Assembly: GCA_964513225.1 (NCBI GenBank)
Contig: CAZEMD010000002.1
Span: 1-37,268, forward strand
Origin: an uncultured Candidatus Bathyarchaeia archaeon
GTDB lineage: Archaea > Thermoproteota > Bathyarchaeia > TCS64
Length of the DNA: 37,268 bases
Direction of reading: 5' to 3'
Shown: positions 12,637 to 36,980 of the stretch, one piece after another
Numbering within the stretch: position 1 is the first letter of the stretch
Layout: each line of letters begins with the position of its first letter
Notes under the pieces: generated by a model
Databases searched by the model: none
Told to the model about the DNA's origin: nothing
The model's input: the letters and a program-made list of their open reading frames with translations, nothing else
Translations under genes and position numbers: made by a program

Positions 12637-12706
12637 CGTCTTCCTCCATGTTCTCGTGTTTCTGCCTTAGTTTAACATGTTCTAAGACGGGTTTAGATGC
12701 CTATAG

Positions 12707-20505: not shown

Positions 20506-20976
20506 TTAGCTTTGTGGGGCTGGTTCCTGTTTTAGTTTCTCTATCTGTTTTACCAGGTGTTTATGATTGTCTCTGGTTTTGTTTATGAGTGCCGCGCCCA
20601 TCCGGGCCGCCAGCTCGGTGGCCCTCAGCCGGCGCATCGTGGGCTCCGTCTTGTCGTTGGCGATGGTTTGTGCCTCGTTGAGTGGCTTGATGAGGGTGAT
20701 GTAGGCTCTCACCCGGTCTGGGGTTGGGTGGATGGGTATGGGGGCGAGGTTTATGGTGGTGTCCATGTCGTCGGTGCGTCGTCTCAGCTTGGGTGCGAGG
20801 TGTAGCCGCCTAGCCGTTAGGGTGAAGAGGCGGATGTCACTGATGAGGTTTTTCTCGCTGCGTCTCAGGCGTCCCAGGGTGGTGTGGAGGAGGGGGGAGT
20901 CTGTTCGTTTGAGGGTGCCGCTGAGCCAGTTGTGGAGGGCTTCGCGTTCGGCTTCGGTGAAGATGTAGGTCCTCAT
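20506..20976 (-). CDS. hypothetical protein (156 aa)
   Basis: ORF overlaps the upstream gene by 4 nt (ATGA). No family recognised. Confidence 0.45.
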   Translation of the reverse strand: MRTYIFTEAEREALHNWLSGTLKRTDSPLLHTTLGRLRRSEKNLISDIRLFTLTARRLHLAPKLRRRTDDMDTTINLAPIPIHPTPDRVRAYITLIKPLNEAQTIANDKTEPTMRRLRATELAARMGAALINKTRDNHKHLVKQIEKLKQEPAPQS

Positions 20977-21401
20977 CTCTGGTACAGTGGCTGTATCTTG
21001 TTGGTTTCGTTTTCCGGGTTTCCTGGTTTGTGGCGCTTGTTTGATTTATTCTTTGATCTGTTTGGGGGTGGGGTGTCTTCCTCTTCAACGGTGTATCCGA
21101 GGCTTGGTTTCTCTTCCTCCTCCATCATCTTGTTCAGGTTCTCTATTTCTTTCTCTATGGTCTCTACCTCTATGTCGACTATCATGGTGTAGGAGGTGCT
21201 TATGAGGCGTGCTAGGGAGTTGGCTGCCTGTATTCTGATCTTCTCGTGGGTTTTCTCGGAGTTGATGATGGCCTCGAGGGTCTGTATGGCTTTGTCCAGC
21301 CTCTTGATGTACTCGTTTCGTTTCTTCTTGGGTTTTATGACGACTCTTCTGGGGGTTAGGTGGATCTCCAGGCCTTGGCCCTTCTCCTTTACTCTGGTCA
21401 A
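20973..21401 (-). CDS. hypothetical basic/coiled-coil protein (142 aa)
   Basis: ORF has a K/E-rich helical core (...IVDIEVETIEKEIENLNKMMEEEEK...) and a basic tail. No family recognised. Confidence 0.45.
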   Translation of the reverse strand: MTRVKEKGQGLEIHLTPRRVVIKPKKKRNEYIKRLDKAIQTLEAIINSEKTHEKIRIQAANSLARLISTSYTMIVDIEVETIEKEIENLNKMMEEEEKPSLGYTVEEEDTPPPNRSKNKSNKRHKPGNPENETNKIQPLYQR

Positions 21402-21542
21402 GCTTCAGCTTCCCGTGTATCTTGGTTTACCCTTTTTTTCTGGGTGGATAAGTGTATCGGGGGTTGTTGTGGTGGCCGCCATGGGTGATCCGGTGCGAGG
21501 GCTCGGGGTAGGTTCTTTTACTCTGCACCCTGTTGTTTTTCT

Positions 21543-21592
21543 ATGCGTGTGGCTATGGTGGCTGGGACTCGGCCCCAGTTCATCAAGTCTGG
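21543..21592 (+). pseudogene. wecB: decayed fragment of UDP-GlcNAc 2-epimerase 5' end (copy 0)
   Basis: ATGCGTGTGGCTATGGTGGCTGGGACTCGGCCCCAGTTCATCAAGTCTG encodes MRVAMVAGTRPQFIKS. Homology to copies 1-4 ends after about 50 nt. Confidence 0.7.
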
Positions 21593-21615: not shown

Positions 21616-22413
21616 CTACTTGATACGCTTTAAAAAGGAATTAACCTGAGAGGTGACTATGGCGCGTCTGAATCTACCCTCAGAGAAACTCTCGACTTGG
21701 AAGGGGCCGACCCGATTCTCGTTTCTAAACTTCTCTCTGACAACTGATAGGGAGTGATCGAGTAGCGATCTCATGTCAGGTGAAAGAGTTCTGCGGGACA
21801 CGGCCGCGTTGAAGTAATCTGTCGCCCTCTCCAGGCTTCCGTTGTAATGCGTCAGCGCGAATATGTCGTATGCATCCTTTTGCTTCATCCTCTCATCCAT
21901 GGCCTGGCCCTTCAGGGCGATGGACCCGACCAGGTCAACTATCTTGAAAGCTGTTTTTGCTTTCCCATCTCCGGGGAGCTGTGCCTCTATCCGTTGGTCG
22001 AAGTTGAACTCGAAGGCGATGTTCAGACCCTCGAACATGAATGCTTGGAGGTCGTCCTGCACCTTCTTTAGGTCGAGGAATCTCTCTCCCTCCTTGTCGC
22101 ACAGGAAGTCCAGGTGTATAGGGTAATCCTTCCCGTCGATGGGGGACGCCACATCCCTGACGAAGCGGAACTGGCTCTCAGGCTCGTACCCGAGTCCTAT
22201 GATGGTCTTCCTGATGGTCTCGTATCTTGGCAGAATCTTCGGTCTGAGAACGAGGTCGATGTCTGTGCTTCCGCAGTGCTCGAAGTAGCCCCTAGTTATG
22301 AAGTATGGCGCCCATCCGCCTGACAAGACCATGTCTTCATGGTATCTCTTGAGGGCGACTCCGAGCTCCAGGAGGGCGGATTTAGATGCTTCAGTTATCT
22401 CGGTGGCGTACAT
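21616..22413 (-). CDS. nucleotidyltransferase, AbiEii-like toxin candidate
   Basis: ...DMVLSGGWAPYFITRGYFEHCGSTDIDLVL... has the G[GS]...DxD minimal NTase motif. Lies immediately downstream of the AbiEi-like gene with a 3-nt gap. Confidence 0.65.
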   Translation of the reverse strand: MYATEITEASKSALLELGVALKRYHEDMVLSGGWAPYFITRGYFEHCGSTDIDLVLRPKILPRYETIRKTIIGLGYEPESQFRFVRDVASPIDGKDYPIHLDFLCDKEGERFLDLKKVQDDLQAFMFEGLNIAFEFNFDQRIEAQLPGDGKAKTAFKIVDLVGSIALKGQAMDERMKQKDAYDIFALTHYNGSLERATDYFNAAVSRRTLSPDMRSLLDHSLSVVREKFRNENRVGPFQVESFSEGRFRRAIVTSQVNSFLKRIK

Positions 22414-22416
22414 GTG

Positions 22417-23076
22417 TCACGCCTCCGATCTCCATCTTTTCTCAATCACTTTCAGTAGCTCCCCCGCCGCCTCCTCTCCTCGACCAGGGTAGTTCAGCAG
22501 ATCGACGTAGAGCTGTACGTCGGATACGACGTTTACGCCGTCAGCCTCCTGTGAGCCGTAGAACACGCCTCCGCTGGATGCGATTACGAATTTGACGTTT
22601 CCGTTCTCCTCCATGGGCATCAAGCCGAGTTGCTTTGCCCACTTGCCTGCATCGTCCTCGCTCATCACGTAGATGTGCACATTCGTAGGCCGTACGAATG
22701 GTGCCACAAGCAGGGCCCCGGCGAGGCCCGTCGCAGCGTATTTCGGTCCGCTAACGCCTCTGAGCTTGGTGAGGAGTGTGGTCACGTCTTCGTAGCCCGT
22801 ATAGTAATCAGTGAAGCGGTTGTCCGCTGTGAAGTTGTTATTATTAGCCCATCCTTTTAGGAGCGCGAGTGGCTCCATGAGCTTGATCTCTTGGCGTTCG
22901 GATTCTCTGATGGCGTACCTCTCCTGAATGAGAGCCATACAGACCTCGTGTGTCCAGCCCAGTGCGGCGCCGGACTCCCTGCTAAGCCCACGGATGGTCC
23001 AGGTCATCGGATGGTTTACAAGTAGGACACGGATTACGTCAGCCGCCTTTCCGCTGAAGAGGTTTAATCTGCCCAC
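22417..23076 (-). CDS. AbiEi-like antitoxin / wHTH regulator
   Basis: GTG start. The N-terminal wHTH-like ...ADVIRVLLVNHPMTWTIRGLSRESGAALGWTHEVCMALIQERYA, with C-terminal ...VVSDVQLYVDLLNYPGRGEEAAGELL, is typical of AbiEi C-terminal domains. Confidence 0.65.
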   Translation of the reverse strand: MGRLNLFSGKAADVIRVLLVNHPMTWTIRGLSRESGAALGWTHEVCMALIQERYAIRESERQEIKLMEPLALLKGWANNNNFTADNRFTDYYTGYEDVTTLLTKLRGVSGPKYAATGLAGALLVAPFVRPTNVHIYVMSEDDAGKWAKQLGLMPMEENGNVKFVIASSGGVFYGSQEADGVNVVSDVQLYVDLLNYPGRGEEAAGELLKVIEKRWRSEA

Positions 23077-23089
23077 CCATGATTCAGGT

Positions 23090-23146
23090 GTTCGGTCATA
23101 TTTATATATGTTCGGTTTTACCGAACGTATATATAGTACACCGAAC
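23090..23146. promoter_or_regulatory. 57-bp symmetric operator-like array: GTTCGGT-N13-GTTCGGT-TTT-ACCGAAC-N13-ACCGAAC
   Basis: Four 7-mers at 23090-96, 23110-16, 23120-26 and 23140-46. Both 13-nt spacers are TATA-like (CATATTTATATAT and GTATATATAGTAC). The array starts 14 nt upstream of the AbiEi-like GTG. Confidence 0.6.
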
Positions 23147-23414
23147 GTTAAAGGGGGCGCTCTTCATCCTATGGGGGTCTTACTTTCTACTGTATTACTT
23201 GACATTAACGCAGGTACATGTAAGTTCTAACGGGATAAATCATTTATGGACATGTAAATCTCTCAGTTCATATGATGACGAGGTTTCACGGGATGGTTTC
23301 TTAAGCATTAAGTTGGTTCCGATCGTTAAGGGGTAGGCTGGTGGGGCTTTGGGTTTAGCTGGTATCACCGGATTCAAGCTGTTTCGTTCAGGATGTGTGC
23401 CTAGCAACTGCCTT

Positions 23415-23810
23415 TCATCGGGTCGAGTTCGCGCGGTTCTTTCCGAGGGTTTCTCGGATGAAGCTGAGTATTGCCCTGGCTGCTTGGGTCGAGTCGTCCG
23501 GAATGTGGCTTTCCTTAACGTGGTCGTCTGATCCCGCGTGATAGTGCTTCGGGTAGGTTTTCACGTGGCTGTGTTTTGGGTGGGGGGCGTTGTCGTGCCT
23601 GTGTATCTCTCCTGTGACGTGTGTGCGCTCCCAGTGGTATGAATACTTGCCTGACGCTGAGAGCCAGACGTCCAAGTAGCTTCCGTCGACGATGTAGACC
23701 CTGAGCTTTGTGGGTGCGCCTGATGAGGTGCGGTGCGTCTGGGCGTCTTCAACTATGTCGGGGTACTCGTCGAGGATTGTGTCGGAGATGCTCTTGTAGA
23801 GGTCCTCCAA
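23415..23810 (-). CDS. DUF6516-like His-rich protein (family annotated in databases as putative TA toxin)
   Basis: TTG start. ...YSYHWERTHVTGEIHRHDNAPHPKHSHVKTYPKHYHAGSDDHVKES... matches my recollection of the ...RYDNAPHH...FPHHKH... core. Confidence 0.5.
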   Translation of the reverse strand: MEDLYKSISDTILDEYPDIVEDAQTHRTSSGAPTKLRVYIVDGSYLDVWLSASGKYSYHWERTHVTGEIHRHDNAPHPKHSHVKTYPKHYHAGSDDHVKESHIPDDSTQAARAILSFIRETLGKNRANSTR

Positions 23811-23823
23811 CGCCGTTTTCCGC

Positions 23824-24117
23824 CTAGGTGGGTATGTTGGCCAGTTCTTTCCGGATCTTCTCGGCGTGTTTTACGAGGTTCTCGTATTGTATGAGGTCCT
23901 CCCATGCGGGGTGCTCGTCTACCGCTCCTTTCTTTATTTGGTCCTCCAGCTCGCGTGGGCTTTTGACGCCGTACTTGGTTTCGAGATCGTGGATTTCTGC
24001 CTTGGCTGCCCTGAGTCTGGCTCTGAGGTACTCTTTGACGCCGCCTGTGACAAGTACCTCCGGTGGTACGCCCAGGGACTTGGAGACTCTGTCGATGAGC
24101 TGGTTGGTCTCGGTCAT
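23824..24117 (-). CDS. small helical partner protein (putative antitoxin)
   Basis: 97-aa ORF 13 nt upstream of the DUF6516-like gene. Charged helical sequence ...KYGVKSPRELEDQIKKGAVDEHPAWEDLIQYENL... Confidence 0.45.
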   Translation of the reverse strand: MTETNQLIDRVSKSLGVPPEVLVTGGVKEYLRARLRAAKAEIHDLETKYGVKSPRELEDQIKKGAVDEHPAWEDLIQYENLVKHAEKIRKELANIPT

Positions 24118-24240
24118 GTGTGTCGTTTATTTGTTCTCTTGGTGGCTTTATAACTTAACGGAGGCCGTGTTTTGTCGTGTTTGGATGCTGGGTTGGGGGC
24201 TGGTGTTAACTCTTTTACTCTACACCTCTAATTGTTCTGT

Positions 24241-24400
24241 ATGCGTGTGGCTCCGGTTGTTGGGACTCGGCCTCAGATAATCAAGTCTGCTCCCCTCATT
24301 AAGGAGGCTGGTAGGCGTGGTTTGGAGCTGGACGTGGTGCATACAGGACAGCACTACGATTATGAGCTGTCTAGGGTGTTCTTCAGTGAGCTTTGGCTGC
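24241..24400 (+). pseudogene. wecB: truncated UDP-GlcNAc 2-epimerase 5' fragment (copy 1)
   Basis: MRVAPVVGTRPQIIKSAPLIKEAGRRGLELDVVHTGQHYDYELSRVFFSEL... The reading frame then runs into unrelated DNA. Confidence 0.85.
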
Positions 24401-24409
24401 CTGAGCGGG

Positions 24410-24610
24410 CTATGGGCGCTGACCATCATCGTGGTCGTCGAGTATCGGCACTGAGCCGGCCTTCCTGACCTTTTCGTGGAGCTTTCTGTCGGCGGTTATG
24501 AGGCTTGAGGACGCGGCCTCGCCGACCTTCACGCAGGATCTCATGGCCTCGCCCTTGAGGCTCTTGTAGGCGTCGTCATCGGCGTCCTTTATGACGATGG
24601 TTGTGCTCAT
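24410..24610 (-). pseudogene. vapB-vapC deletion fusion remnant
   Basis: MSTTIVIKDADDDAYKSLKGEA... (VapB-like N-terminus) runs directly into ...SSSLITADRKLHEKVRKAGSVPIL (PIN C-terminal strand/helix). The whole PIN core is missing. Confidence 0.5.
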
Positions 24611-24690
24611 GTTCTCAAATGAGAAGGTGATTGGTGTGGAGGTAAATATTACGTTCAAAGGTTTTTAATTTTAGTCGCGCACGCTATTGA

Positions 24691-25575
24691 TTAACTCCCC
24701 TCTCTTATATCGGCTAATATTCTAGCTACAAGTTTCTTCTCCTTATGCGTTTTTGAGTCTCTGATAATTTTCGATAGGTCTTTATCCATGTCTCCTAGAA
24801 ACTTGTATCCGTCTATTACCTTTGAGATCACCTCTTCTTTTGAGGGCAAGCTTCCTCTGCGAACAAGGCTTCTGAGATCTTCCCAGTCATAGTCACCTTT
24901 TTCCACTTTATCAAAAAATAATTCTGGATCGAAGGGGTCTCTCGCATTCCAGCATTTTACTACTACTAATGCTTTTATGGTATCTCTATTGTAAGGTCGT
25001 CCAGTGAATAAGTATAGGTCATACAAGTCTCTACTCCTGGCTCTTTGAAAGGCTGCTCTAATTTTTTCAGATAAAACTTCATCCCTTTGCATACATTGCA
25101 CAGGAAATCTTTGGAACTCGCAATACTTGAAGTACATCTCACTTTGGAGAGGAAGTTCCGCTGTAGGAAAGACAGGTTGTTCTCGGAAGCTGACTTGGAG
25201 TTCAAAGACGGTTCCCGGATTCCAAGCGTGGGCGTATCTGACCACTGCTAGATAGGATTCCGGAGTCAGGTTCTCATCATCTATTGTGAAGTCTATGCCA
25301 TACCAGCTTTTCTCGTCTAAAAGGTCTTTGATCTTTGCGCTTAGTTCCTCAGGTCTTATGTCGATACTTGTAAAGTCAAGGTCCATTGAGAACCGCCCTG
25401 TGTTCCCGAAATATATCTTCTTTAGGCAGGTTCCGCCTTTAAAGGCTAGTCTTGGAAGCATTGGTTCGGACATGATGCGTAGGACGTAGGTTAGTACTAT
25501 GTCCCGCTCAGCCCTGTTCTCTGGTACCCTGCTTGAACGGGCGTAGAATGCTACATGTCTTCTTTCCAGCACCAT
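24691..25575 (-). CDS. abiEii: AbiEii/AbiGii family nucleotidyltransferase toxin
   Basis: ...LAFKGGTCLKKIYFGNTGRFSMDLDFTS... is the family signature. 294 aa, 3 nt downstream of its AbiEi partner. Confidence 0.85.
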   Translation of the reverse strand: MVLERRHVAFYARSSRVPENRAERDIVLTYVLRIMSEPMLPRLAFKGGTCLKKIYFGNTGRFSMDLDFTSIDIRPEELSAKIKDLLDEKSWYGIDFTIDDENLTPESYLAVVRYAHAWNPGTVFELQVSFREQPVFPTAELPLQSEMYFKYCEFQRFPVQCMQRDEVLSEKIRAAFQRARSRDLYDLYLFTGRPYNRDTIKALVVVKCWNARDPFDPELFFDKVEKGDYDWEDLRSLVRRGSLPSKEEVISKVIDGYKFLGDMDKDLSKIIRDSKTHKEKKLVARILADIREGS

Positions 25576-25578
25576 TGC

Positions 25579-26832
25579 TCACCTTATCTCGATCTCGCTC
25601 AGCAGCTGAGATCTAGGGACGTTGTTAATTACTCTCCACTTCTTGGTTAGTTTACCTGTCTTCGGCCTCTTGGAGTCTAAGTATATGACTGTCCCTCCCA
25701 CTTTGTCTAGCAACGTATTCTCTAGTTTAAGTGATAGCGGCTTCACGAGGTTTTCCTCAGCCAGAAAAGAGATGATGAAGCCCAATCTCTGGATGAGGGA
25801 GCGGGAGTTCATCTTTACAGCATATTTGACAAGCCTATCCTTATTAACTCGGGAAAGGCCCCTCCACGTAATCCCAGCTAGCTGCTCTACTCCACCGGCA
25901 TATCTCGGTTTATCAAACGAGTCCACTAATGATTTTTCTGGCTCGGCCATGTTCACGTTGGTATCGAAAATGGCTTCTTTCCTGTAACCGAAGAACTTGT
26001 TCTCAGACAGAGTTATGAATTTAAAATTGCTGCCAGACCACTCGAAATCTGGCTTCTTCTTGGTTGTCGCAATGAATAAGGTGTAGGGAATCTGCGTCGT
26101 GAATCCATAATGGCTGTTGGATGTGTAGTAGCTGAAATAGTATGGCTCGATTAGAGAGGCGCCTATGACGTAGGAATTTGTTGGTGGTATCCTGTTTGGA
26201 TAGCCATAGCTTAGGGGGATGAATTGGTATAGACCTTGGGTGACTCTCTCTATCCACTTCTTATCTTCGAGACTGTGAAGCAATAGATATGCATAATCCG
26301 GCGTACAATCCAAGGCCTCTTGAACGTCAGAAGGACGGATTATGGTTTTGTTTTCAGACTCCCATGTGGCAACTAGCCTAGCTTCGTTTGGCGAAAGATG
26401 CAGCGTTTCTCGCTGTCTCTGCAGCTCCGATTCTCTCAATTTTAAGCCATCTTTACTTGTTATCCCGATCTGCTCGAAGGTCAGCAGCTTCACCGGAATC
26501 CTTTCAAGCTCCTCTCTCACGGAGGCCTCTACTTCGGGGCCAATCACTGTCAGCTCGAACTTTTTCAATGTGGGTTCAATGTTGGAGATCGCGGTGAAGA
26601 TGTTGATTATCTGGTCGAGCATGGTGCGCCCTATCTTTTTTCCGGTAACTTCCACGAAAATATCGGTATCGTCGCTCTTCTTGAAGTGGAAGTCGACGGT
26701 GATTCGACCTGGCAGAACCTCGTTTACCGCCGTGAGAGTGTGTTCCCTATATATTCGGGGGATCTCACGAGACGCGTAAGCCTCTAAGGCACCTTCCATG
26801 CCATTCACCGGGATGGGGAAGGCATCACGCAT
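25579..26832 (-). CDS. abiEi: AbiEi-family antitoxin with about 140-aa N-terminal PD-(D/E)XK-like extension
   Basis: Start reassigned to ATG 26832 (MRDAFPIPV...), because 26833-27129 is the repeated wecB upstream region read antisense. The C-terminal about 270 aa (...LSPNEARLVATWESENKTIIRPSDVQEAL...YLLLHSLEDKKWIERVTQGLY...) is an AbiEi-type wHTH plus C-terminal domain. The N-terminus has ...RITVDFHFKKSDDTDIFVEVTGKK... Confidence 0.7.
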   Translation of the reverse strand: MRDAFPIPVNGMEGALEAYASREIPRIYREHTLTAVNEVLPGRITVDFHFKKSDDTDIFVEVTGKKIGRTMLDQIINIFTAISNIEPTLKKFELTVIGPEVEASVREELERIPVKLLTFEQIGITSKDGLKLRESELQRQRETLHLSPNEARLVATWESENKTIIRPSDVQEALDCTPDYAYLLLHSLEDKKWIERVTQGLYQFIPLSYGYPNRIPPTNSYVIGASLIEPYYFSYYTSNSHYGFTTQIPYTLFIATTKKKPDFEWSGSNFKFITLSENKFFGYRKEAIFDTNVNMAEPEKSLVDSFDKPRYAGGVEQLAGITWRGLSRVNKDRLVKYAVKMNSRSLIQRLGFIISFLAEENLVKPLSLKLENTLLDKVGGTVIYLDSKRPKTGKLTKKWRVINNVPRSQLLSEIEIR

Positions 26833-26915
26833 ATTATAAATTTTTCTCTTTTTCTTAGTGTTAGAATTTATTATACTAAGATTCTCGGAAATTTTTATAA
26901 TTAGTTTTGTCATTG

Positions 26916-26929
26916 ACGTCCATGGACGT
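26916..26929. promoter_or_regulatory. perfect 14-bp palindrome ACGTCCATGGACGT
   Basis: Read directly. It lies between the AT-rich AbiEi promoter region and the start of the repeat shared by copies 2 and 4. Confidence 0.3.
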
Positions 26930-26959
26930 TTCCTTTGGGCTAAGTGACGGAGGTTCAGG

Positions 26960-27127
26960 GACGGCTGGATGACTTGGGGGGGGGGCAGGGCTTCATCGGG
27001 GGCCTCTCGACGAGGTGTTGAACCTGGTTCAGCTGGGTGAAGGTGAGTGTGACGCCTGGTGAGGTTCACTTGCCTCTTTTCTGTGTGTGTTGGATACTCT
27101 TTTAGATTGCTAGGAGAATCTTTCAAC
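26960..27127 (+). repeat. about 168-bp wecB upstream repeat (pairs with 36981-37147)
   Basis: Aligns position-by-position with 36981-37147 with fewer than about 10 mismatches. G+T-rich on the + strand. Confidence 0.9.
27097..27108 (+). promoter_or_regulatory. TATA-like box (CTCTTTTAGATT) about 25 nt upstream of the wecB-fragment ATG
   Basis: The same box occurs at 37117-37128. Related CTCTTTTACTCT or CTCTTTAGG boxes sit upstream of copies 0, 1 and 3. The spacing fits a leaderless archaeal promoter. Confidence 0.35.
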
Positions 27128-27304
27128 ATGCGTGTGGCTCTGGTTGTTGGGACTCGGCCTCAGATCATCAAGTCTGCTCCCATCATTAAGGAGGCTGGTA
27201 GGCGTGGTTTGGAGCTGGACGTGGTGCACACGGGGCAGCACTACGATTATGAGATGTCGAGGGTGTTCTTCAACGAGCTTGGTTTTTATATGGTCTATAT
27301 GTGA
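27128..27304 (+). pseudogene. wecB: truncated UDP-GlcNAc 2-epimerase 5' fragment (copy 2)
   Basis: MRVALVVGTRPQIIKSAPIIKEAGRRGLELDVVHTGQHYDYEMSRVFFNELG, then unrelated FYMVYM*. Homology ends near 27287. Confidence 0.85.
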
Positions 27305-27448
27305 CTAGGGAGAGGACCGGGATCACAAGGTAAAGAGACTAGTAAGATGCGGGTGGAGCCGGAGAAGACCGTAGCTATAGACTAGAGCAAACATGTTCTG
27401 TTTTTAACGTACCTTATATTGTGGTTATTTAAGCGAGGTTCAACATTA

Positions 27449-28282
27449 TTATTTTTTGATGTGGATGTTTTCCTTGTAAAATAGGCAATGGTTTTTTATT
27501 GGACATATATCGCATTTTGGGTTCGAGCTACAGATCCCTAGACAGTTTTCTGTTTCTTTTACACAGCAAAAGAGCCATATAGCTAAATCTACTATTCCTG
27601 GGGCTTCAGATAGATCGATGTTCGATATCTTGAATCTCTTCAACTCTTCTCGTGCAAAGTTTGATAGGGTCTCATGGATGCCCTGGTATCCTTTTTCGGT
27701 TGTCATAGTGATGTCCACTTTCCTTGGTGCGTATCTGTGGAGCAGGCCTACTCTAACCATGAATCTTACCTCGTGTCTGTCTATGGGGGCTCTATTGAAG
27801 TATCCCAGGTCTCTGAGCAGGTTGTCCCTACCCTTGAAGCCAATTCCTTTTAAGTTTGTTAAATAAGGGTCTATCGATCCTTGTTCCGCGTATTCGTTTC
27901 TTTCATCGGCCCACTCTTTCAGCGTGTTGCTTTTTTCGAGTTGTTCTTTCAGTGCTTGGAAGGAACCAAGGATCGTGTTCTTGAAGCTTCCATCATTTAG
28001 CTTCGATTTTACTAGCGTTTCTAATGATCCGTCTTTCAACATTTGGAGGGTTACTGTTTCTAGCCCGAGCTTTTTCCAGTATATGGGTCTATAGTAGCTT
28101 CGGGTTACGATTATCTTGGCGATCGCGGTCAAGGCTTCTTCTGGGTAGCTTTCATGTTCTAGGGTTTCACGATTTTCTAAGAAAGTGTTGGTGTCTCTGG
28201 TAACGATCTCCTCTATGCTTTCAGATCCCTCTGATTCATGGTTTAGAAGCTGTTGGAACCAGTGAACGTCGCTTTTAGACAT
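27449..28282 (-). CDS. HhH-GPD superfamily (endonuclease III-like) DNA glycosylase-like protein with Fe-S cluster loop
   Basis: HhH motif ...LTNLKGIGFKGRDNLLRDLGY, then ...APIDRHEVRF (catalytic-Asp position). The C-terminal CSSNPKCDICPIKNHC (C-x5-C-x2-C-x5-C) resembles the EndoIII 4Fe-4S loop. AT-rich gene. Confidence 0.65.
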   Translation of the reverse strand: MSKSDVHWFQQLLNHESEGSESIEEIVTRDTNTFLENRETLEHESYPEEALTAIAKIIVTRSYYRPIYWKKLGLETVTLQMLKDGSLETLVKSKLNDGSFKNTILGSFQALKEQLEKSNTLKEWADERNEYAEQGSIDPYLTNLKGIGFKGRDNLLRDLGYFNRAPIDRHEVRFMVRVGLLHRYAPRKVDITMTTEKGYQGIHETLSNFAREELKRFKISNIDLSEAPGIVDLAIWLFCCVKETENCLGICSSNPKCDICPIKNHCLFYKENIHIKK

Positions 28283-28409
28283 TTAATCACAGGTATAGAT
28301 TAAAGATAGGTTTTAAGAAAGATTGTATGTTGTGGACCTCAACAGTTTCAATCGAATTAATTGAAGTCGTGTCTCCTTTTATCTGGAAGAAGTCTTTTAT
28401 CAACATTTA

Positions 28410-28706
28410 ATGACAAGTTCTATTGCCTTGAAGGCGTTGATCCTTGCTGGGGGTTTAGCTACTAGGTTGAGGCCTCTCAGCTTGACTAGGCCTAAGATTC
28501 TGTTCCCTTTGGCTAATGTGCCTCTCATCGATTACACGTTGAGGTGTCTAAGGGCGTGTGGCGTTGACACCGTCGTCATGGCTGTGAACAACCTCGCTGA
28601 CGTGATCATGGGTTATCTGGGTTGTGAGAGTTTTGGTTTGGAGGTTCTCTACTCTGTTGAGGGGGAGCCTCTTGGCAAGGTTTTGCCTATCACGGGTGGC
28701 GTGTGA
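28410..28706 (+). pseudogene. N-terminal fragment of a sugar-phosphate nucleotidyltransferase
   Basis: ...KALILAGGLATRLRPLSLTRPKILFPLANVPLIDYTL...VLYSVEGEPLG, then the frame ends. A full enzyme would be at least about 230 aa. Confidence 0.75.
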
Positions 28707-28736
28707 TGGGCGGGAATATTTCTTTGCGTGTTTGGG

Positions 28737-29159
28737 TTATGTCATCGCTATTAGCGTGTCTGTGTCGATTGTGTTTGTGCTCGCGGCGTTAGCTGCTTTT
28801 TGGAGTTGCCTATCCTCCGTCACCAGGGTGTATCCTTCCTGTTGCGCTGTTGTTAGATAGGCTGAGTCGTAGTATGTCAGATTGCATTGGAACGCGTTTT
28901 CCATTATGGCTATGTGTGTCTGCCTGTTCTGTGCCACGTATGTTTTCATGAGGGCGGTGAGGTCGTGGACTTGCTCTATGGATTCAAGTGCGGTTTTTCT
29001 GTCTGGTTTCTTTAGCAGTTTATTGATCTTCCATATGGCGTTGCCCAGCTCGTAGATTGTTAGATCTAGTAGGAGTTCGTCTTTGAGGTGCTCCACGGCT
29101 TCCGTGGGGTGGTTCTTGGTTAGCAACATTATGGCTGAGGCGTCGAATATTTTTCTCAT
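28737..29159 (-). CDS. vapC: VapC PIN-domain toxin
   Basis: IFDASAI..., ...YELGNA..., ...TYYDSAYL... and ...LVTEDRQL are the four PIN acidic positions. ATGA overlap with the upstream antitoxin. Confidence 0.85.
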   Translation of the reverse strand: MRKIFDASAIMLLTKNHPTEAVEHLKDELLLDLTIYELGNAIWKINKLLKKPDRKTALESIEQVHDLTALMKTYVAQNRQTHIAIMENAFQCNLTYYDSAYLTTAQQEGYTLVTEDRQLQKAANAASTNTIDTDTLIAMT

Positions 29160-29377
29160 CTCTGTTCCCGTGTCTCCCGGATGGTTTTTATTATCTCCTC
29201 GTCGGGTACCTCTCTGAGTAGTTTGCTTAGTTTTTTTGCTGCTTCTTGGGCTCGTTGTTCTTGGATCTTTTTTACTTCGGCTTCTAGGGCTTTTCGGGTT
29301 ACTTCGCTTATGTTTATCCCTGTCTCTTGGAGTTCTTTTTTTAGCTCGTCGGGTATTCGCACGGTTATGGATGCCAT
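29156..29377 (-). CDS. vapB: ribbon-helix-helix VapB-type antitoxin
   Basis: MASITVRIPDELKKELQETGINISEVTRKALEAEV... has an RHH beta-strand plus helices. Confidence 0.75.
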   Translation of the reverse strand: MASITVRIPDELKKELQETGINISEVTRKALEAEVKKIQEQRAQEAAKKLSKLLREVPDEEIIKTIRETREQR

Positions 29378-29575
29378 ACTATCATGTATTTACGTTTATT
29401 GTCTTACGTAAAAGGTTATGCTTTTTCTGTATTAATTCGTTCATCTTTATACCGGCTTCTGGGTGGCCTCTTAGAAAGGCGATGAGGGTACCTGAGTCTA
29501 GGCAGACCAATCCGGTGCCTCTAGGTTGCGTGTCTCGGTGCGTGCAACACACGAATATTAGAAATAGTATTTACT

Positions 29576-30109
29576 CTATGGAGACATCCCCAGTTCGTCG
29601 AGTATTCTGCGGTATACCGTTGAGCTTATTCTAAGCCCAGCCTTCACGAGATCGTCTATGATCTGGAGTGCTTCCCTTTTTGTGATCGAGTCTTGCCTGA
29701 AGGCTTGAACGATGGTGCCGCAGGTGCCTATGGGCTTGATGTTCAATATTCTTGACACCCTTCTGGCCTCTCTGTCGTCGGCGATGAAGTAGGCGGCGTC
29801 TAGCTGTTTACAGAGCTTGAGGGCCTCCTTCTCCCCGAGCCCCAGTCTGGTGTTGGTGTCTAGGAAGCTGTACTCGGCTTCTACCTCGGGCTCTACCCGC
29901 TCTTTGATGATCCAGGTTCCGACGGCTTTCTCTATGATGGAGGCGTCTGGTATGTTTAGCGCTTTTCCCTGTGTCACGGCTTCGTCGTAGACGGCCTCGG
30001 GGATGTGGATTTCTGGGAAGACTTCCCTGATGATATCTAGTCTGCCGATCTTGGCCAGGTAGATGAGGGGTGTGGAGTCTGAGACAGCCGCCTTGGATGG
30101 ACTAGTCAT
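29576..30109 (-). CDS. DUF3368/COG2405 PIN-like protein
   Basis: ...VSDSTPLIYLAKIGRLDIIREVF...GEKEALKLC...YFIADDREAR...PIGTCGTIVQAFRQDSIT...LVKAGLRIS. Confidence 0.8.
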   Translation of the reverse strand: MTSPSKAAVSDSTPLIYLAKIGRLDIIREVFPEIHIPEAVYDEAVTQGKALNIPDASIIEKAVGTWIIKERVEPEVEAEYSFLDTNTRLGLGEKEALKLCKQLDAAYFIADDREARRVSRILNIKPIGTCGTIVQAFRQDSITKREALQIIDDLVKAGLRISSTVYRRILDELGMSP

Positions 30110-30419
30110 TCCCGAATGCCTTCAAGTCCTCTTCCAGGTCCTCGACGTCGTACTGGGGCTGTATGTTTAGCTTTGCTAGTACGTCGATCATCTCCCAGAC
30201 CGTGAGCCCCGCGGTCTCAGCCGCCCTGGGAAGCGTGGCTCCGCCTTCGGCGTATGATTCTATGGCTTTCTGGAGCTTCCATTCCCGTATGTAGTGTTCC
30301 AGCGCCCTGTCGAGGACCGTTGACTTGTCCACCTTCTCCGCTCTCGCGATCTCCTCTATCTGGCTCACCCTTTCCTGGGGGAGCCGGGCTGACACGACCT
30401 CTTTGGCCAACACCATCAC
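30102..30419 (-). CDS. UPF0175 family antitoxin-like protein
   Basis: GTG-ATG start. ...AIESYAEGGATLPRAAETAGLTVWEMIDVLAKLNI... Overlaps its partner by 8 nt. Confidence 0.75.
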   Translation of the reverse strand: MMVLAKEVVSARLPQERVSQIEEIARAEKVDKSTVLDRALEHYIREWKLQKAIESYAEGGATLPRAAETAGLTVWEMIDVLAKLNIQPQYDVEDLEEDLKAFGND

Positions 30420-30595
30420 CTCGTATACGTTGTAATACGGAGTATACGTATTTAAACGGTTCCCCGTGACAGGCCCAAACTGTGGCGGAGGTCCCTCAGC
30501 TGGGCGCGGAGGGCATGAGGGTGTTGGGGTTTGAGTTCGTCCACTTTGGGTTGTTTAGCTGATGTTGTGAAGAGGGGTATGGAGCTAGAGCCTGT

Positions 30596-31090
30596 TTATT
30601 CGTTCAGGTTTGAGACCCTTTTTATTACATCATCACTTATGTAAAAACCAAGGTTTTTCAGGGTTTGCACCGTCTCGATAAACTCGTTCAATGAGTAGAG
30701 CTTGCGGTCGTACATCGTCCTGAGAACCTTCAACGTGCCACCTATTGGTATACCCATACTGGTTGCTTTCCTCCGGGCAAGACGATCATCTATGATTAAG
30801 GTGTCTGCTTTTTCCTCGATTGCCAACGTAATGGCTTCTGCTTCGCCCTTTCCAAGAGGATCTATTAACGCAGCGACCATTTTACGGTCTTTTGGCTCTT
30901 TAACCGTGACTTCGCCTCGGCTCTTTGCTTTCGCTAGTTCTCTGTCGCCTTTCAGCCCCTTACCTTTAACGCATATCTCTACGTAGACAGCCTTCGGGAT
31001 GATTATTTCCTGAAAAAGGTTCTTCAATAATCTAAGGTGTCCGGTTTTGCTTAATGCTATGATCACTGATGAGTCGAGGACCGCCTTCAA
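30596..31090 (-). CDS. DUF3368/COG2405 PIN-like protein
   Basis: ...VLDSSVIIALSKTGHLRLLKNLF...GEAEAITLAIEEK..LIIDDRLAR...PIGGTLKVLRTMY...LKNLGFYIS. Confidence 0.8.
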   Translation of the reverse strand: MKAVLDSSVIIALSKTGHLRLLKNLFQEIIIPKAVYVEICVKGKGLKGDRELAKAKSRGEVTVKEPKDRKMVAALIDPLGKGEAEAITLAIEEKADTLIIDDRLARRKATSMGIPIGGTLKVLRTMYDRKLYSLNEFIETVQTLKNLGFYISDDVIKRVSNLNE

Positions 31091-31305
31091 ACCTCGAGCT
31101 CCTGCCGGGCTTCCTCATCCGTGTAAATATAGGCTGGGATGTTTCTGTTCTTTAGCTCGATGAGGAACTCCTGGAGGGGCATCTCGGCGATCTCCGCGGC
31201 CCTGTTGAGGCTGATGATTTTCTTTTGGAAGACCTCTACTGCTGTCGCTAGTTTTACGTCGCGCTCGGATATTGATTCAGGTACCCGTATTTCTATGGTC
31301 TTCAA
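31087..31305 (-). CDS. UPF0175 family antitoxin-like protein
   Basis: ...AVEVFQKKIISLNRAAEIAEMPLQEFLIELKNRNIP... ATGA-type 4-nt overlap with its partner. Confidence 0.75.
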   Translation of the reverse strand: MKTIEIRVPESISERDVKLATAVEVFQKKIISLNRAAEIAEMPLQEFLIELKNRNIPAYIYTDEEARQELEV

Positions 31306-31412
31306 CGTTGGCCTAATTACTACGTGTGGCTGGTGTTTATTATAGTTATAGTGGGATTCTTTTTAGTAATAGGTTATATTTTATAGCGGGAATTTTGGGT
31401 GCTTTCCTTGTT

Positions 31413-31602
31413 TTATTCTCTGTTCAGTTTTTTGATTATGAGGGCTGCGACGTGTTGTTTGAACTCTTGCTCGGTGCCTTGTGTGGTATATTCTTGGTGG
31501 TCTCCCTTGCCTGTGGCCTCGGTGTGGGTTAGTGGTTCTTCGTCTATCGTTTGGTTGAGGTGGTTTATTACGCTGGCTCTGCTTATGGTGCCCTTGAGTC
31601 GG
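31413..31602 (-). pseudogene. 3' remnant of the wHTH gene family seen at 12707-13069
   Basis: My translation is RLKGTISRASVINHLNQTIDEEPLTHTEATGKGDHQEYTTQGTEQEFKQHVAALIIKKLNRE*. The 5' half is absent and it joins the next remnant at about 31602. Confidence 0.55.
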
Positions 31603-31818
31603 CTGCGTAGGTTCAGTATAGGAGGCTATGATTTCGTTGAGCAGAACCCAGGTAAGGGCAGCAGGTGGGCCGAGATGGCGAGGGAGGGAAACCGGATATT
31701 GTGGGTGATGAAGGGCGGCAGTTATCTAGCTCAGGTGCGCGACGGGGAGTTCCGTGATTTCAAGGAGAGGGGGTGGAGGCGAGTTTGCGTTTTCCTTTTA
31801 ATTGGTTACTTATTGTAA
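31603..31818 (+). pseudogene. 3' remnant of the gene family seen at 12337-12636
   Basis: ...LRRFSIGGYDFVEQNPGKGSRWAEMAREGNRILWVMKGGSYLAQVRDGEFRDFKERG... DNA homology to 12463-12630. Confidence 0.55.
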
Positions 31819-32085
31819 GCGTTTTTTTCCAGAGGGCCCTCCACGATTTTTTTAGTTAAAATATGCTGGTTTTATCATGATTCCGTTGAATTATACAAAA
31901 TAGCCAAGTGTATAATAAAGAGGAATGTTTCGGGAGATGTCTCCACTGGTGATGGGGATTCGAGTCATCAATAGGCTAGAGAGGAGAAGGTTCAGAAATA
32001 CAATTTTATTTATATGCTTATAAGAGATCATGACTTTTTATTTCATAATATTTTAAATCAAATAGATATAATTTGTTTTAGATCT

Positions 32086-33648
32086 ATGCCAAAATTTTGT
32101 CCGGAATGCGGTTCTCAAATAAAATTTGAAAATGCAAAGTTTTGTACTAATTGTGGATTTAATTTTCAAGATAATATCTCAACTGCATCTGAAAGTGATA
32201 CTAAAGTTAAACAAAATGTTTCGTTCAACATCTTTCAACTTGGAGAAAAAATGGAAGAGGCTATAGAACAAATATTTATCGCTAAAGGCTATAAAACAAA
32301 AAGAAGGCAAAGAATCAAAGGAAAATCGGGTACCATAAATGAAATAGATGTTTTAGCAATAAAAAATAGAAAAAAAATTGCTATTGAATGTAAAAACCAT
32401 TCAACACCAATCGGACAAAATCTAATCAGAGATTTTTATACAAAAATAAAAGAAATTAGAATACCTAATGGGTTTTTTGCTTCCAACTCTGATTTCACCA
32501 GTGGCGCGATCAAGTTCGCACAACAGAACAATATCACACTTTGGTCAAGAGAAGAAATAATAGAAGAATACTGGTTAGTTAATGTTGGGAGAACAAACGT
32601 AGGAAAAGAGCATAATCTAAAAAACGCATTACCTTTAAATATAGATTACGAAAAAGCAATTAAATTAAATTTAGAGAATTATGATAAAATAAAGATAAAT
32701 TCCTCAAATTTATTTTATAAACCATATTACGTAGTTGAATATGTGTTTAAAGATAAATATCATGATCCTACGAGAGAGATCCATACATTTTATGATGAAG
32801 GATTAGTACTTATAGATGGATTAGATGGAAGGATATTGAATAAAACAGATACCATGGGTAGATTAAAACAAATAATTAGTAACTCAGATGAGGAAGTAGA
32901 TACGAAAGTATATGATGAATTATTAAATTATAATAAAGTTGAGAATTATAGAATAAACTCTGATTTTTTTAATGTTAATGTCATGGAACCTCAGGTTCAA
33001 AATAGATTCATAAAAAAATTAGCTACAGATTATATAACAGAGAAAAACACAAAAGAAATAAATTATATACCTAAATCATCAGAAACAATTTTTGATGGAA
33101 AAAGTGTCACCTATAAACCTAAAAGTAAAAATATTATGCTGAAAAAAGTAAATTTTCTGTACGTTCCAAAATGGAAGATCGAGTTCCAATCTATCGATAA
33201 TTATTATACAAGGGAAATTTATGGCCATACAGGAACTAAAATTGAAGATACAATAGAGTACTGTCCTTATCACTTTCAGCTTGGTGGTTTGAGGTTAGTA
33301 ACGAAAGCTACTCACGCCGTGTGTGAAGTTTGTGGTCAGGCTCTGTGTAACGAACATATCACCCAATGTCCCCTTTGTGGAAAATGGTTGTGCATGGAAT
33401 GTGGAGTCAAGTGCAGTAATTGTAATCGAATATATTGCGTGGAACATATAAATAATCTATGTTCAATAAGCCAAAAAGAGATTTGTGATGAATGTACTTC
33501 TATCTGTCCAATTTGTGGCAATATGTACAGCAATAAGTTTGAGGTTGAGTGTTCTGAATGTGGCTCCATAGTATGTAAAAACTGCTCGCAGTCAAAAGGA
33601 ATGATAAGAAGAAAACAATTCTGTATTAATTGTTTATCAGATTTATGA
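32086..33648 (+). CDS. Zn-ribbon / Mrr-type restriction endonuclease domain / unknown middle domain / C-terminal multi-CxxC protein
   Basis: Start set at MPKFCPECGSQIKFENAKFCTNCG (zinc ribbon). The segment ...MEEAIEQIFIAKGYKTKRRQRIKGKSGTINEIDVLAIKNRKKIAIECKNHSTPIGQNLIRDFY...NGFFASNSDFTSGAIKFAQQNNITLW is Mrr_cat-like (D...E-x-K). The last about 115 aa hold at least 8 CxxC pairs. About one-third G+C by eye. Confidence 0.7.
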   Translation: MPKFCPECGSQIKFENAKFCTNCGFNFQDNISTASESDTKVKQNVSFNIFQLGEKMEEAIEQIFIAKGYKTKRRQRIKGKSGTINEIDVLAIKNRKKIAIECKNHSTPIGQNLIRDFYTKIKEIRIPNGFFASNSDFTSGAIKFAQQNNITLWSREEIIEEYWLVNVGRTNVGKEHNLKNALPLNIDYEKAIKLNLENYDKIKINSSNLFYKPYYVVEYVFKDKYHDPTREIHTFYDEGLVLIDGLDGRILNKTDTMGRLKQIISNSDEEVDTKVYDELLNYNKVENYRINSDFFNVNVMEPQVQNRFIKKLATDYITEKNTKEINYIPKSSETIFDGKSVTYKPKSKNIMLKKVNFLYVPKWKIEFQSIDNYYTREIYGHTGTKIEDTIEYCPYHFQLGGLRLVTKATHAVCEVCGQALCNEHITQCPLCGKWLCMECGVKCSNCNRIYCVEHINNLCSISQKEICDECTSICPICGNMYSNKFEVECSECGSIVCKNCSQSKGMIRRKQFCINCLSDL

Positions 33649-33675
33649 TTGTAGTGGTATTATTTTAGTTCTATG

Positions 33676-33706
33676 CTTGCATATGAAGGCACACATGCAA
33701 GTTTTT
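33676..33706 (+). terminator. hairpin (CTTGCATATG...CACATGCAAG) followed by a T5 run
   Basis: 9/10 complementary arms at 33676-33701, then TTTTT at 33702-33706. Lies 28 nt after the stop of the Mrr/Zn gene. Confidence 0.4.
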
Positions 33707-33961
33707 AAATGAAATTATTTATTTTGGAGGGAGTGTGTTCATTTTTTAAGCTGCCCTTGCCAGGAGTTTGCTGGGTGGCGGGTTTTCCTCTGAGTTTCTG
33801 AAAAAGGGCGTGTGGGTGGATTAGCCCCCTTTTGCATTCATTCACTGAGGGCCCCTGTGAAACTTTCTTTTCTATACTTATCCAGTATATCTCCCAGAGG
33901 AGTTAGAAAGAATCGTTTTTCAGTTCATTAGTGAATTGAGATGGATTTTTCATTTTATATT

Positions 33962-34771
33962 TTAGTTTATCCATTCTTTCATTGAAGCAGTTCTTCGTTC
34001 CTGTTCTTTGGTTCTAGAAGCGATCATTTTTCTGCCTTCTTCTGGGTCGTTGAGTATCTCTTTGAGTCGGCCGTAGTCTCTTGCGATTGCGTTTCCTGCC
34101 ACCCATGCTCCGGCGTTGAAGTCTAGTGGTGAGCAATCTGCTTGTCTGCATAACTCTATTATATCGTGTTTTTTGGCTTTGTATTTGTTACCTAATATTA
34201 TCTTGAGTGCTTGTTCCACCCACGTGTCTATTGGCTGGAAGTGGGGGTGATAGTGTCTGTCGGTTTCGAGGTGACGGTAGGCTATGTCTCGTAGGTAGAG
34301 GCAGGTTATTTTGTCTCCTACGCCTCGGATCGAGTTTATGAACTTGTAGGCGGCTGGAACTTGGTTTGATGATAATAGGTCTTGGGCGTATGTGTAGAGG
34401 TTGACTGCTTTTTCCTGTGATAGTCTTCGTAGGACCCCTTTGTCTGATTTCATAGGGTTGTGGGTTTCGTTTAGTTTTGGTTCATGATACTTATCTTTGG
34501 CTATATCTTTGTATGTTTTCCATGCTTTTTCTGCATCTTTTTTGGTTATTCTGGTTATCTCGTCTTTGAACGTTTGGTTTATGGCCAGATTTGCTAGGGT
34601 TCTGTATGATTGGGCTGCTCCTTGTCTTTCATATGCGTAGTTATGTAGAAAGTTTAGCAGGGCTTGTTTCGGTGTTTCGGGTGGGTCTTCTAGCCATCCG
34701 TTCCAGAAGATGGTTGAATAGCTCGCTGTGTTGTTGGCTAGGTCGATTTGACTTTGTTTGAATTTCTTCAT
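33962..34771 (-). CDS. divergent HhH-GPD glycosylase-like protein (no Fe-S loop)
   Basis: ...AAYKFINSIRGVGDKITCLYLRDIAY...HFQPIDTWVEQAL has the HhH hairpin with Lys plus a downstream Asp at EndoIII-like spacing. The N-terminal about 130 aa are unrecognised. Confidence 0.5.
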   Translation of the reverse strand: MKKFKQSQIDLANNTASYSTIFWNGWLEDPPETPKQALLNFLHNYAYERQGAAQSYRTLANLAINQTFKDEITRITKKDAEKAWKTYKDIAKDKYHEPKLNETHNPMKSDKGVLRRLSQEKAVNLYTYAQDLLSSNQVPAAYKFINSIRGVGDKITCLYLRDIAYRHLETDRHYHPHFQPIDTWVEQALKIILGNKYKAKKHDIIELCRQADCSPLDFNAGAWVAGNAIARDYGRLKEILNDPEEGRKMIASRTKEQERRTASMKEWIN

Positions 34772-35122
34772 TTATCTCACCGTTTAGATTATTGTTTTTT
34801 TTCAGGTGGATCTTATAATTCATATGTAGGTTCAATCCATAATAATAGTTAATTAAAATATATTATTCGGGGAGACGAAGAATGTTAGGCTCTTCGTTGA
34901 TGGTGACTATGAGGGCCTTAGTACAGGCACCACCGTCAACGTGAAGCTCCACAGTCTGGCGGGATGGATTACATCAAACTTAATATTATTTTAGCAACTT
35001 TAAAAGGAAAATAAATTAAATTTATTTTAATGTTTAACCTCGTCCTTTCGCCTGTATAGCCGGTGGGTCGTCGGGTGGTGTTTAGGGTTAACTCTTTAGG
35101 TTTATTCCTCCATTTATCTTCC

Positions 35123-35326
35123 ATGCGTGTGGCTCTGGTTGTTGGGACTCGGCCTCAGATCATCAAGTCTGCTCCCATCATTAAGGAGGCTGGTAGGCGT
35201 GGTTTGGAGCTGGACGTGGTGCACACGGGGCAGCACTATGATTACGAGTTATCCCGGGTTTTCTTCAACGAGTTTGAGATGCCCGAGCCGATTATGGATG
35301 CTGACCATTATCGGTGTCGTTTTTAA
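35123..35326 (+). pseudogene. wecB: truncated UDP-GlcNAc 2-epimerase 5' fragment (copy 3)
   Basis: MRVALVVGTRPQIIKSAPIIKEAGRRGLELDVVHTGQHYDYELSRVFFNEFEMPEP..., then stop. The first 116 nt are identical to copy 2. Confidence 0.85.
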
Positions 35327-36904: not shown

Positions 36905-36980
36905 TTACTGGTAGGGATACCCGCGGTTATATGTTTTTTCCCTTCATGTGTGGGCCTTACCCACAAGAATCCATGGTAGA

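Follow-up and report, generated by a model that had tools for sequence, protein, structure and literature searches.

An integrase-less array of toxin-antitoxin and defence cassettes bounded by 5' fragments of wecB in a Bathyarchaeia contig

Layout of the array and its wecB copies

The window analysed here is an entire metagenomic contig of 37,268 bases from salt-marsh sediment (CAZEMD010000002.1, from an uncultured Candidatus Bathyarchaeia archaeon), and it carries an array of toxin-antitoxin and defence cassettes parted by truncated copies of wecB, the UDP-GlcNAc 2-epimerase gene. A UDP-sugar gene cluster, recognised by its Pfam matches, occupies 14.7-20.3 kb on the minus strand and encodes a hexapeptide acetyltransferase, a DegT aminotransferase, a UDP-sugar dehydrogenase and a GFO/IDH/MocA oxidoreductase. 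The remaining 17 kb of the window form the array, which lies upstream of this cluster and in which five copies of the wecB 5' end, all on the plus strand and each made of the promoter and 49 to about 240 nucleotides (nt) of coding sequence, separate the cassettes named Z, A, B, C and D. The cargo of these cassettes lies nearly all on the minus strand. As in an integron, small co-oriented cassettes follow one another in tandem in the window and, as in arrays of site-specific elements, every cassette is flanked by direct repeats of target-gene (wecB) sequence. An earlier note, made from the sequence alone, had singled out cassettes B and D, proposing that they share both ends, carry different cargo and belong to one element family.

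The shortest copy, F1 (21509-21591, plus strand, ATG at 21543; nhmmer E=6e-12), which the earlier note had overlooked, consists of an alpha-type promoter followed by only about 49-57 nt of wecB. F2 (24200-24409, plus strand, ATG at 24241; E=5e-64) and F4 (35081-35291, plus strand, ATG at 35123; E=1e-65) both join an alpha-type promoter to wecB nt 1-169 and form the left boundaries of cassettes B and D, respectively. F3 (27086-27367, plus strand, ATG at 27128) has a delta promoter and a wecB 5' fragment that reaches about nt 240, well preserved over nt 1-155 and badly decayed from nt 156 onwards. F5 (37107-37268, plus strand, ATG at 37148) combines a delta promoter with the start of wecB and is truncated by the contig end, so that this last copy cannot be taken as the intact gene it had been thought to be. 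Near 37198, where read support is thin, F5 is one C short with respect to the other copies, which would shift the frame; this one-base deletion may be a contig-end error.

The promoter-like box is conserved ahead of each copy and occurs in two types, alpha (GTTAACTCTTTTACTCTA) ahead of F1, F2 and F4 and delta (GGATACTCTTTTAGAT) ahead of F3 and F5. The truncation points differ among the copies (about nt 49-57 in F1, 169 in F2, about 240 in F3 and 169 in F4). The strongest conservation is found inside the first 49 nt, in the stretch GGGACTCGGCC.CAG.T.ATCAAGTC, which is present in most copies.

The shared ends of cassettes B and D

The two cassettes do differ in cargo, as had been stated. Cassette B holds a toxin-antitoxin remnant and an AbiE pair, formed by the AbiEii nucleotidyltransferase toxin (24691-25575, minus strand; Pfam PF08843 1e-26, PADLOC AbiEii 6e-58) and the AbiEi antitoxin/regulator (25579 to about 26913, minus strand; PADLOC AbiEi 1e-60, Pfam AbiEi_4). 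Cassette D holds two PIN toxins with AbrB/MazE-fold partners. In its first part, D1, the toxin PIN1 (35292-35717, minus strand) is of the PIN_3/TIGR00305 type and is full length, not a remnant as proposed earlier, and its antitoxin AbrB1 (35707-36015, minus strand; PF04014 6.5e-9) has the MazE/AbrB fold. The second part, D2 (36250-36904, minus strand), contains PIN2 (36250-36696; PF01850 3e-9) and an AbrB/MraZ-like antitoxin (36671-36904). A toxin domain with an adjacent, overlapping antitoxin gene, as expected of type II PIN/AbrB and type IV AbiE toxin-antitoxin systems, is present in PIN1/AbrB1, PIN2/AbrB2 and AbiEii/AbiEi, and the vapBC of cassette B is a fused remnant. D2 was not found in the relatives described below, and an exact look-up of PIN2 gave nothing.

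At the left ends, 24205-24438 and 35087-35320 agree at 193 of 234 positions (82.5%). This block is made up of 36 nt of alpha promoter, wecB nt 1-169 and a 29-nt tail, the wecB homology stopping near +169. The tail (24410-24438, minus strand) comprises the stop codon and the last nine codons (DDHDDGQRP) of a PIN1-type toxin and matches 35292-35320, the last 29 nt of PIN1, at 23 of 29 positions, a score reached by 0 of 1000 shuffles. In each cassette, then, the shared extra stretch covers the 3' end of a convergent PIN frame, as previously recognised, with PIN1 and AbrB1 intact in D and the tail alone in B. Past the tail the similarity is not significant (24439-24660 against 35321-35540, a score reached by 65 of 1000 shuffles), and the identity of 52% over +199..+330 is no better than that of B or D with unrelated PIN genes in the window. 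The proposed homology beyond wecB thus stands for the 29 nt of the tail and falls to chance level after it; the first of the two left-end motifs quoted in its favour is real and the second (GAGCTTTCTG... against CAGCTTTCTGG...) is at chance level.

The tail of B is close to the C-termini of PIN1 orthologues (DDHDNGQRP), and the same tail occurs in the related contig L081. It is in frame with the remnant open reading frame (ORF) of B (24410-24658, minus strand), a dead toxin-antitoxin gene with an antitoxin-like N-terminus and about 30 aa of a VapC-like PIN C-terminus, for which no Pfam match was obtained and whose DNA beyond the tail is unrelated to PIN1 of D. It follows from the match to the orthologue C-termini that B once held a PIN1-type cassette, the body of which later gave way to AbiE and another toxin-antitoxin remnant.

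The right end of B (26957-27127) contains the delta-type wecB promoter (-38..-1) and 130 nt shared with D only, and a near-copy of it, about 93% identical, lies at 36978-37147 in D. When the comparison is extended into wecB (26957-27249 against 36978-37268) the identity is 94.2% (276/293), and the right ends are as the earlier note described them; another repeat search gave 96% for 26977-27180 against 36997-37200. By segment, the identity is 92% over -170..-39, 97% over -38..-1 and 93% over wecB nt 1-121, and the homology stops abruptly upstream, where -300..-171 is 49% identical, that is, unrelated. The promoter part is conserved in all wecB copies, and relatives keep about the last 45 nt of the block. 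It had been conceded at the outset that the left ends might be no more alike than two unrelated PIN genes and that the right repeat might simply be the wecB promoter duplicated with its gene. This holds in part: the PIN bodies are no more alike than unrelated PINs, and the right repeat includes the promoter, but it extends for a further 130 nt (-170..-39) that occur only in B and D among the sequences examined. Elsewhere the left junction is found in the related contigs L081, L099 and L100, and the right block in none.

The ends of B and D have separate histories, the left one being old (64-79%) and the right one recent (92-97%). Outside the core, F2 and F4 share 64% of the promoter, 74% of nt 118-169 and 79% of the tail, values as low as, or lower than, those between the left end of D and its L081 orthologue (72-84%). 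Inside it, wecB nt 1-117 is nearly uniform in the window (F2/F4 94%, F3/F4 99%, F2/F3 95%), with flanks at 50-79%. F3 and F4, which stand on either side of cassette C, are identical over the 117 nt from -1 to +116, and F3 combines a pristine proximal part with a decayed distal part. Over nt 1-143 the window copies cluster together (91-96%) apart from the relatives, and a mosaic contig from another salt-marsh sample joins a B-type upstream block to a wecB start with F2-like variants. These patterns point to ongoing gene conversion among the wecB repeats. B and D are related by descent at both junctions, which consist of the array repeat and the PIN1 relic, the shared left junction being ancient and the right block recently duplicated or converted.

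Related arrays and the possible origin of the locus

Related sequences came from a metagenome contig scan with the conserved wecB core, which gave L081 and L082, and from a protein search with the 52-residue wecB N-terminus, which matched 66 short ORFs (44-89 aa) at 54-96% identity, several of which were taken with their contexts. L082 is identical to window 26166-30450. L081 carries, in this order, AbiE, an alpha-type wecB fragment, the tail, PIN1-AbrB1, a small wecB remnant and a wecB copy, the longest one, which continues for 314 nt up to the contig end. Five wecB fragments lie within 7 kb in L097 and five within 9.6 kb in L098, with two each in L083 and L095, all of them on one strand (plus) and separated by toxin-antitoxin pairs, an ATPase, a flippase, a helicase and other genes. 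In the window and L097 the minus strand carries the cargo adjoining each fragment; in L083 and L098 its orientation is mixed. More distant matches are lone wecB remnants within glycan clusters. Viral contigs scanned for the wecB core gave no match, and in the scan of the genome collection the nearest wecB N-terminus was just 65% identical (Candidatus Bathyarchaeota), with no close genome. This match and the names that databases give to relatives of the window proteins both indicate Bathyarchaeia. The wider phenomenon is a cassette array without an integrase, parted by 5' pieces of a housekeeping gene, which recurs in one lineage of Bathyarchaeia; literature searches on integration at wecB and on arrays of this type in Bathyarchaeia gave no precedent.

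Two cassettes of the window recur with their wecB-side junction. PIN1-AbrB1, with an alpha-type fragment at the PIN1 end, is present in L081, L099 and L100 (84-89% DNA identity; 84-87% protein identity for PIN1 and 87-95% for AbrB1). The fragment abuts the tail directly in L081 and L100 and is separated from it by a 200-nt insert in L099, and the neighbour on the AbrB side differs in each contig. A 65%-identical PIN_3/AbrB pair was found in a housekeeping context without wecB, so that PIN1 and wecB are linked in close relatives only. Cassette Z (20506-21401, minus strand), which lies between the UDP-sugar cluster and F1, is 76% identical in DNA to L083 7318-8271 and comes immediately after a wecB copy that stops at nt 188 in L083, L095 and L096, whereas in the window it stands to the left of F1. 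The truncation points are scattered from nt 49 to 393 in the loci and from residue 40 to 87 across the 66 ORFs, whose junction tails are many and distinct, a few of them recurrent. Some fragments lack nt 1-27 or more, and others cover just nt 27-85, 63-143 or 110-180. In addition, a wecB upstream block of 220-245 nt with a 13-bp-stem hairpin (GCGCCTCCAGGGAG...CTCCCCTGGAGGCG) is common to L081 3100-3317, L083 6894-7110 and L097 1900-2143, where it accompanies three different cargos.

No recombinase domain was detected in the window ORFs scanned against Pfam (the unscanned ORFs are too small for an integrase) or in the gene tables of the related loci, that is, in all about 25 cassettes and about 100 kb including the window; transposases were represented by fragments only, of IS66 and IS110, in L099 and the distant L088. 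The window contains no inverted repeats of at least 40 nt, and neither B nor D has inverted terminal repeats. Folding at the boundaries of B and C gave z-scores of about 0 on both strands for an attC-like structure, with small local hairpins at F4. A single crossover core fixed across the repeats was not found either, the fragments ending anywhere within the ranges given above. A tRNA gene as attachment (att) site was considered and rejected, ARAGORN finding no tRNA and Rfam giving no match in the window. At window 31917-31951, contigs from several runs share about 30 nt followed by a tRNA-like T-arm (GGTTCGAATCC).

We tentatively read the locus, from its sequence, as an accretion array to which toxin-antitoxin and defence cassettes may have been added serially at the wecB 5' end by wecB-anchored homologous recombination. 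Incoming DNA would consist of cargo followed by the wecB promoter and gene start, and would be joined by homologous recombination within wecB, each addition leaving a truncated, promoter-bearing 5' copy behind. This could occur by Campbell-type insertion, in which a circle released by loop-out from another array integrates through a single crossover, or by one-sided homology-facilitated illegitimate recombination of linear DNA, with the non-homologous joint at no fixed position within the 5' region of the resident wecB. The direct repeats of 150-400 bp would then go on recombining, homogenising the core (nt 1-117) and duplicating, reshuffling or deleting cassettes by loop-out. Direct repeats so long are expected to lose the DNA between them, and the prevalence of toxin-antitoxin and AbiE cargo plausibly reflects, for this reason, a survival filter: addictive cassettes (PIN/AbrB, VapBC, AbiE) would kill the cells that lose them and so persist preferentially. 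Toxin-antitoxin cassettes are known to stabilise chromosomal integron arrays and genomic islands. In this scenario, of which we infer both the recombination route and the role of addiction, the left ends of B and D would represent an old alpha-type repeat joined to the 3' end of PIN1-AbrB1, intact in D and reduced to 29 nt in B, and the right ends a recently duplicated or converted delta-type wecB upstream block.

Additions anchored by homology best account for the scattered truncations, the promoter at the head of nearly all fragments, the lack of a recombinase in about 25 cassettes and the signature of conversion, and the wecB-side junction that D1 and Z keep in different contexts also speaks for them. 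The scattered truncation points fit illegitimate joints rather than one crossover site. Campbell-type and homology-facilitated illegitimate recombination are expected to produce a truncated anchor copy, the insert and a new promoter-led anchor copy, with variable non-homologous joints. The locus may be such a product, L081, with a fragment, D1 and at least 314 nt of continuing wecB, coming closest to this arrangement. Such insertions have been described mainly as laboratory or transformation events in bacteria, and we know of no description of them as a recurrent builder of multi-cassette arrays in archaea. Several points weigh against the homology-based reading. In the Logan contigs, which are short, neither circular or excised forms nor an allele with an empty site were seen. 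No intact wecB is seen directly after the array: the L081 copy leaves its contig after 314 nt, F5 stops at the contig end, and in L083, L097 and L100 no complete copy comes after the fragments. A site-specific att duplication would account just as well for the 117 identical nt on either side of cassette C, and some of the homogenisation could be assembler consensus across the repeats.

It is unlikely, in our judgement, that the array grew by site-specific accretion at an att site in the wecB 5' end, with the recombinase off the contig or acting in trans and the cassettes left as integrase-less remnants resembling cis-mobilizable elements (CIME). In arrays of integrative and conjugative elements, integrative and mobilizable elements and CIME, and in those of archaeal integrative elements in tRNA or protein genes, cassettes also stand head to tail between direct repeats of the target gene, each insertion regenerates a usable gene end and integrase-less members lie between the repeats. 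The identity on either side of C and the conserved stretch in the first 49 nt agree with this as well, and archaeal arrays built by re-use of one att site are known (PMC6563490). Against it stand the lack of an integrase in the sequences surveyed, the scatter of the truncation points, the fragments without nt 1-27 or more and the wecB sequence that each fragment holds far past any possible core. The target is, moreover, the 5' end of a gene and not its 3' end, and the repeats, at 50-400 bp with their promoter, exceed the length of the att sites reported for archaea (8-69 bp; PMC6563490) 5- to 40-fold. An integron was considered and rejected, there being no hairpins and no IntI and the boundaries being wecB-derived and variable in length. 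Chromosomal integron arrays, including those of archaeal integrons (PMC9668308), resemble the locus in their small, mostly co-oriented cassettes of one to four genes, in their recurring boundary sequence and in a richness in toxin-antitoxin cargo that plausibly stabilises the array. They differ from it in that the boundary here is a coding-gene fragment of conserved sequence and variable length, with no attC hairpin, IntI or attI. As in defence islands and integration hotspots beside core genes, a variable group of genes, here AbiE, PIN modules, an Mrr-like nuclease and glycosylase-like genes, stands between conserved core genes, at the border of a glycan cluster; unlike hotspots, usually defined by conserved flanks only, the array carries a copy of the flank at every cassette boundary.

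Purely local evolution, in which unequal crossing-over would have duplicated the wecB upstream region in tandem, followed by decay and independent gain and loss of toxin-antitoxin genes with no movement between genomes, seems about as improbable as site-specific accretion. The clustering of the window copies over nt 1-143, the 92-97% identity of right-end blocks found nowhere else and the PIN1 relic of B, a sign that cargo was replaced in place, speak for it. However, A, B, C and D carry unrelated cargo and their fragments stop at different points (57, 169 plus tail, about 240, 169 plus tail), so that a single duplication cannot account for the array; in addition, other genomes share both promoter types, alpha and delta, and the junctions of D1 and Z, in other orders and contexts. 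The proposal that a single discrete family of mobile elements, with conserved termini and exchangeable cargo, includes both B and D appears quite unlikely. Its premise that the likeness is more than random duplication survives, both ends being shared beyond chance and the left junction recurring in three contigs, but a discrete element with termini of its own is not what the comparison reveals. The two ends are of unequal age, the right end is not shared by the D1 copies of L081, L099 and L100, no terminal inverted repeats, recombinase, attC-like fold or fixed crossover point accompany them, and the supposed termini are the general repeat that bounds every cassette here and in the relatives.

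There is very little likelihood that the array is an assembly artefact in which single-cassette alleles of co-occurring strains were chained through shared wecB k-mers. Short-read assemblers have difficulty with repeats of 117 identical nt, Logan unitigs end within each of the wecB copies, and read support is thin at the right end (36.6-37.0 kb, 36560-37025 and F5). In eight salt-marsh runs, whose unitigs are short, neither excision joints nor presence/absence polymorphism were found. Yet the depth is about 7x over the chromosomal flank and over each cassette in four samples, the junctions are reproduced by L082, an independent JGI contig that spans B-F3-C, and by L081, which spans the AbiE-fragment-D1-wecB succession, and several unrelated assemblies contain arrays of this kind.

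The usual explanation for gene-cassette arrays is a dedicated recombinase, such as an integron or element integrase. Here the sole recurring boundary is a piece of a housekeeping gene with no recombinase seen, in a poorly known class of uncultured archaea. One speculative and rather doubtful extension of the accretion reading is that Bathyarchaeia possess a recombinase-independent, integron-like cassette system. The promoter-bearing 5' fragment of a conserved sugar-nucleotide gene (wecB, possibly other glycan genes) would provide a homology arm that travels with the cargo. Circles formed by loop-out of cassettes would be re-inserted in the same or another genome through ordinary homologous recombination, resistance to loop-out would enrich the arrays in toxin-antitoxin cargo, and the retained promoters would fire antisense into convergent toxin genes. 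If homology alone builds such arrays, archaea would have a simple route to gather and exchange toxin-antitoxin and defence genes at the variable edges of glycan clusters, which would also explain the dominance of addictive modules in such islands. The wecB repeats have practical consequences too: they break assemblies, several contigs ending in a wecB fragment, and yield many spurious 'partial epimerase' calls.

Cassette cargo and other features of the window

The two genes of cassette Z (156 and 142 aa) had no match in Pfam, NCBIfam or PADLOC. The cargo of cassette A (21616-24117, minus strand) comprises, by Pfam, a weak AbiEii-like nucleotidyltransferase (21616-22413), AbiEi_2 (22417-23076), a TumE toxin (23415-23810) and a DUF7342-like partner (23824-24117), all on the minus strand. 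Cassette C (27368-35080, 7.7 kb) contains, according to Pfam, two HhH-glycosylase-like genes, a 5' fragment of an NTP_transferase gene, three PIN toxin-antitoxin pairs and an Mrr_cat nuclease with zinc ribbons, together with repeat debris.

For AbiEi of cassette B the PADLOC match spans residues 173-439 of the 444-aa version, the start codon being uncertain; the 516-aa ORF that extends to 27129 is a mere read-through of the intergenic repeat. The protein has an N-terminal extension of ~170 aa with a PD-(D/E)xK-like motif (DIFVEVTGKK), which is missing from the PADLOC AbiEi profiles. In PIN1 (35699-35730 in the window, and the copies in L081, L099 and L100) no ATG, GTG or TTG precedes the FLDAN/FLDTN motif, which holds the first catalytic Asp, and gene callers begin the protein at an internal Met; its translation may be coupled to that of AbrB1. 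A 39-nt palindrome (GTTCACGG-N23-CCGTGAAC) at 36059-36097 forms the right boundary of the PIN1-AbrB1 cassette and is conserved 5' of antitoxin genes, one per locus, in L097 (221-259), L083 (459-496), L099 (about 6337-6372) and L100 (about 4100). It could be an operator or another protein-binding site.

A second gene displays the same architecture as wecB. The NTP_transferase fragment of cassette C (28410-28706, plus strand) encodes the first 98 aa of the protein (Pfam positions 1-88 of 245), and a convergent PIN/CcdA-like pair (28737-29377, minus strand) begins 30 nt after it. Fragments of DegT, Hexapep/GMPPB, FAD-binding and GTP-cyclohydrolase genes adjoin toxin-antitoxin pairs in L095, L083, L099 and L101. 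Near the left end of the window the promoter region of an amidohydrolase gene is repeated directly (2755-2807 and 3739-3791) around two small ORFs, with a 5' coding piece of the same gene further upstream (2542-2580 against 3985-4023); this repeat may reflect the same kind of event at another gene.

Between the acetyltransferase and DegT genes of the UDP-sugar cluster, a gene for a 403-aa coiled-coil protein (15227-16438, minus strand), which matches DUF2130 weakly and contains an EVK motif, resembles a further insertion of the defence type. Two homologous segments (84-86%) of 12461-12932 recur at 31443-31762 in swapped order (X-Y against Y-X), a circular permutation; they derive from a small winged-helix gene pair, and the depth is roughly doubled at 31620-32185. 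Finally, a 38-nt palindromic T-rich hairpin at 154-191 reappears at 31790-31827 with 92% identity and looks like a shared terminator or an element of the repetitive extragenic palindromic (REP) kind.

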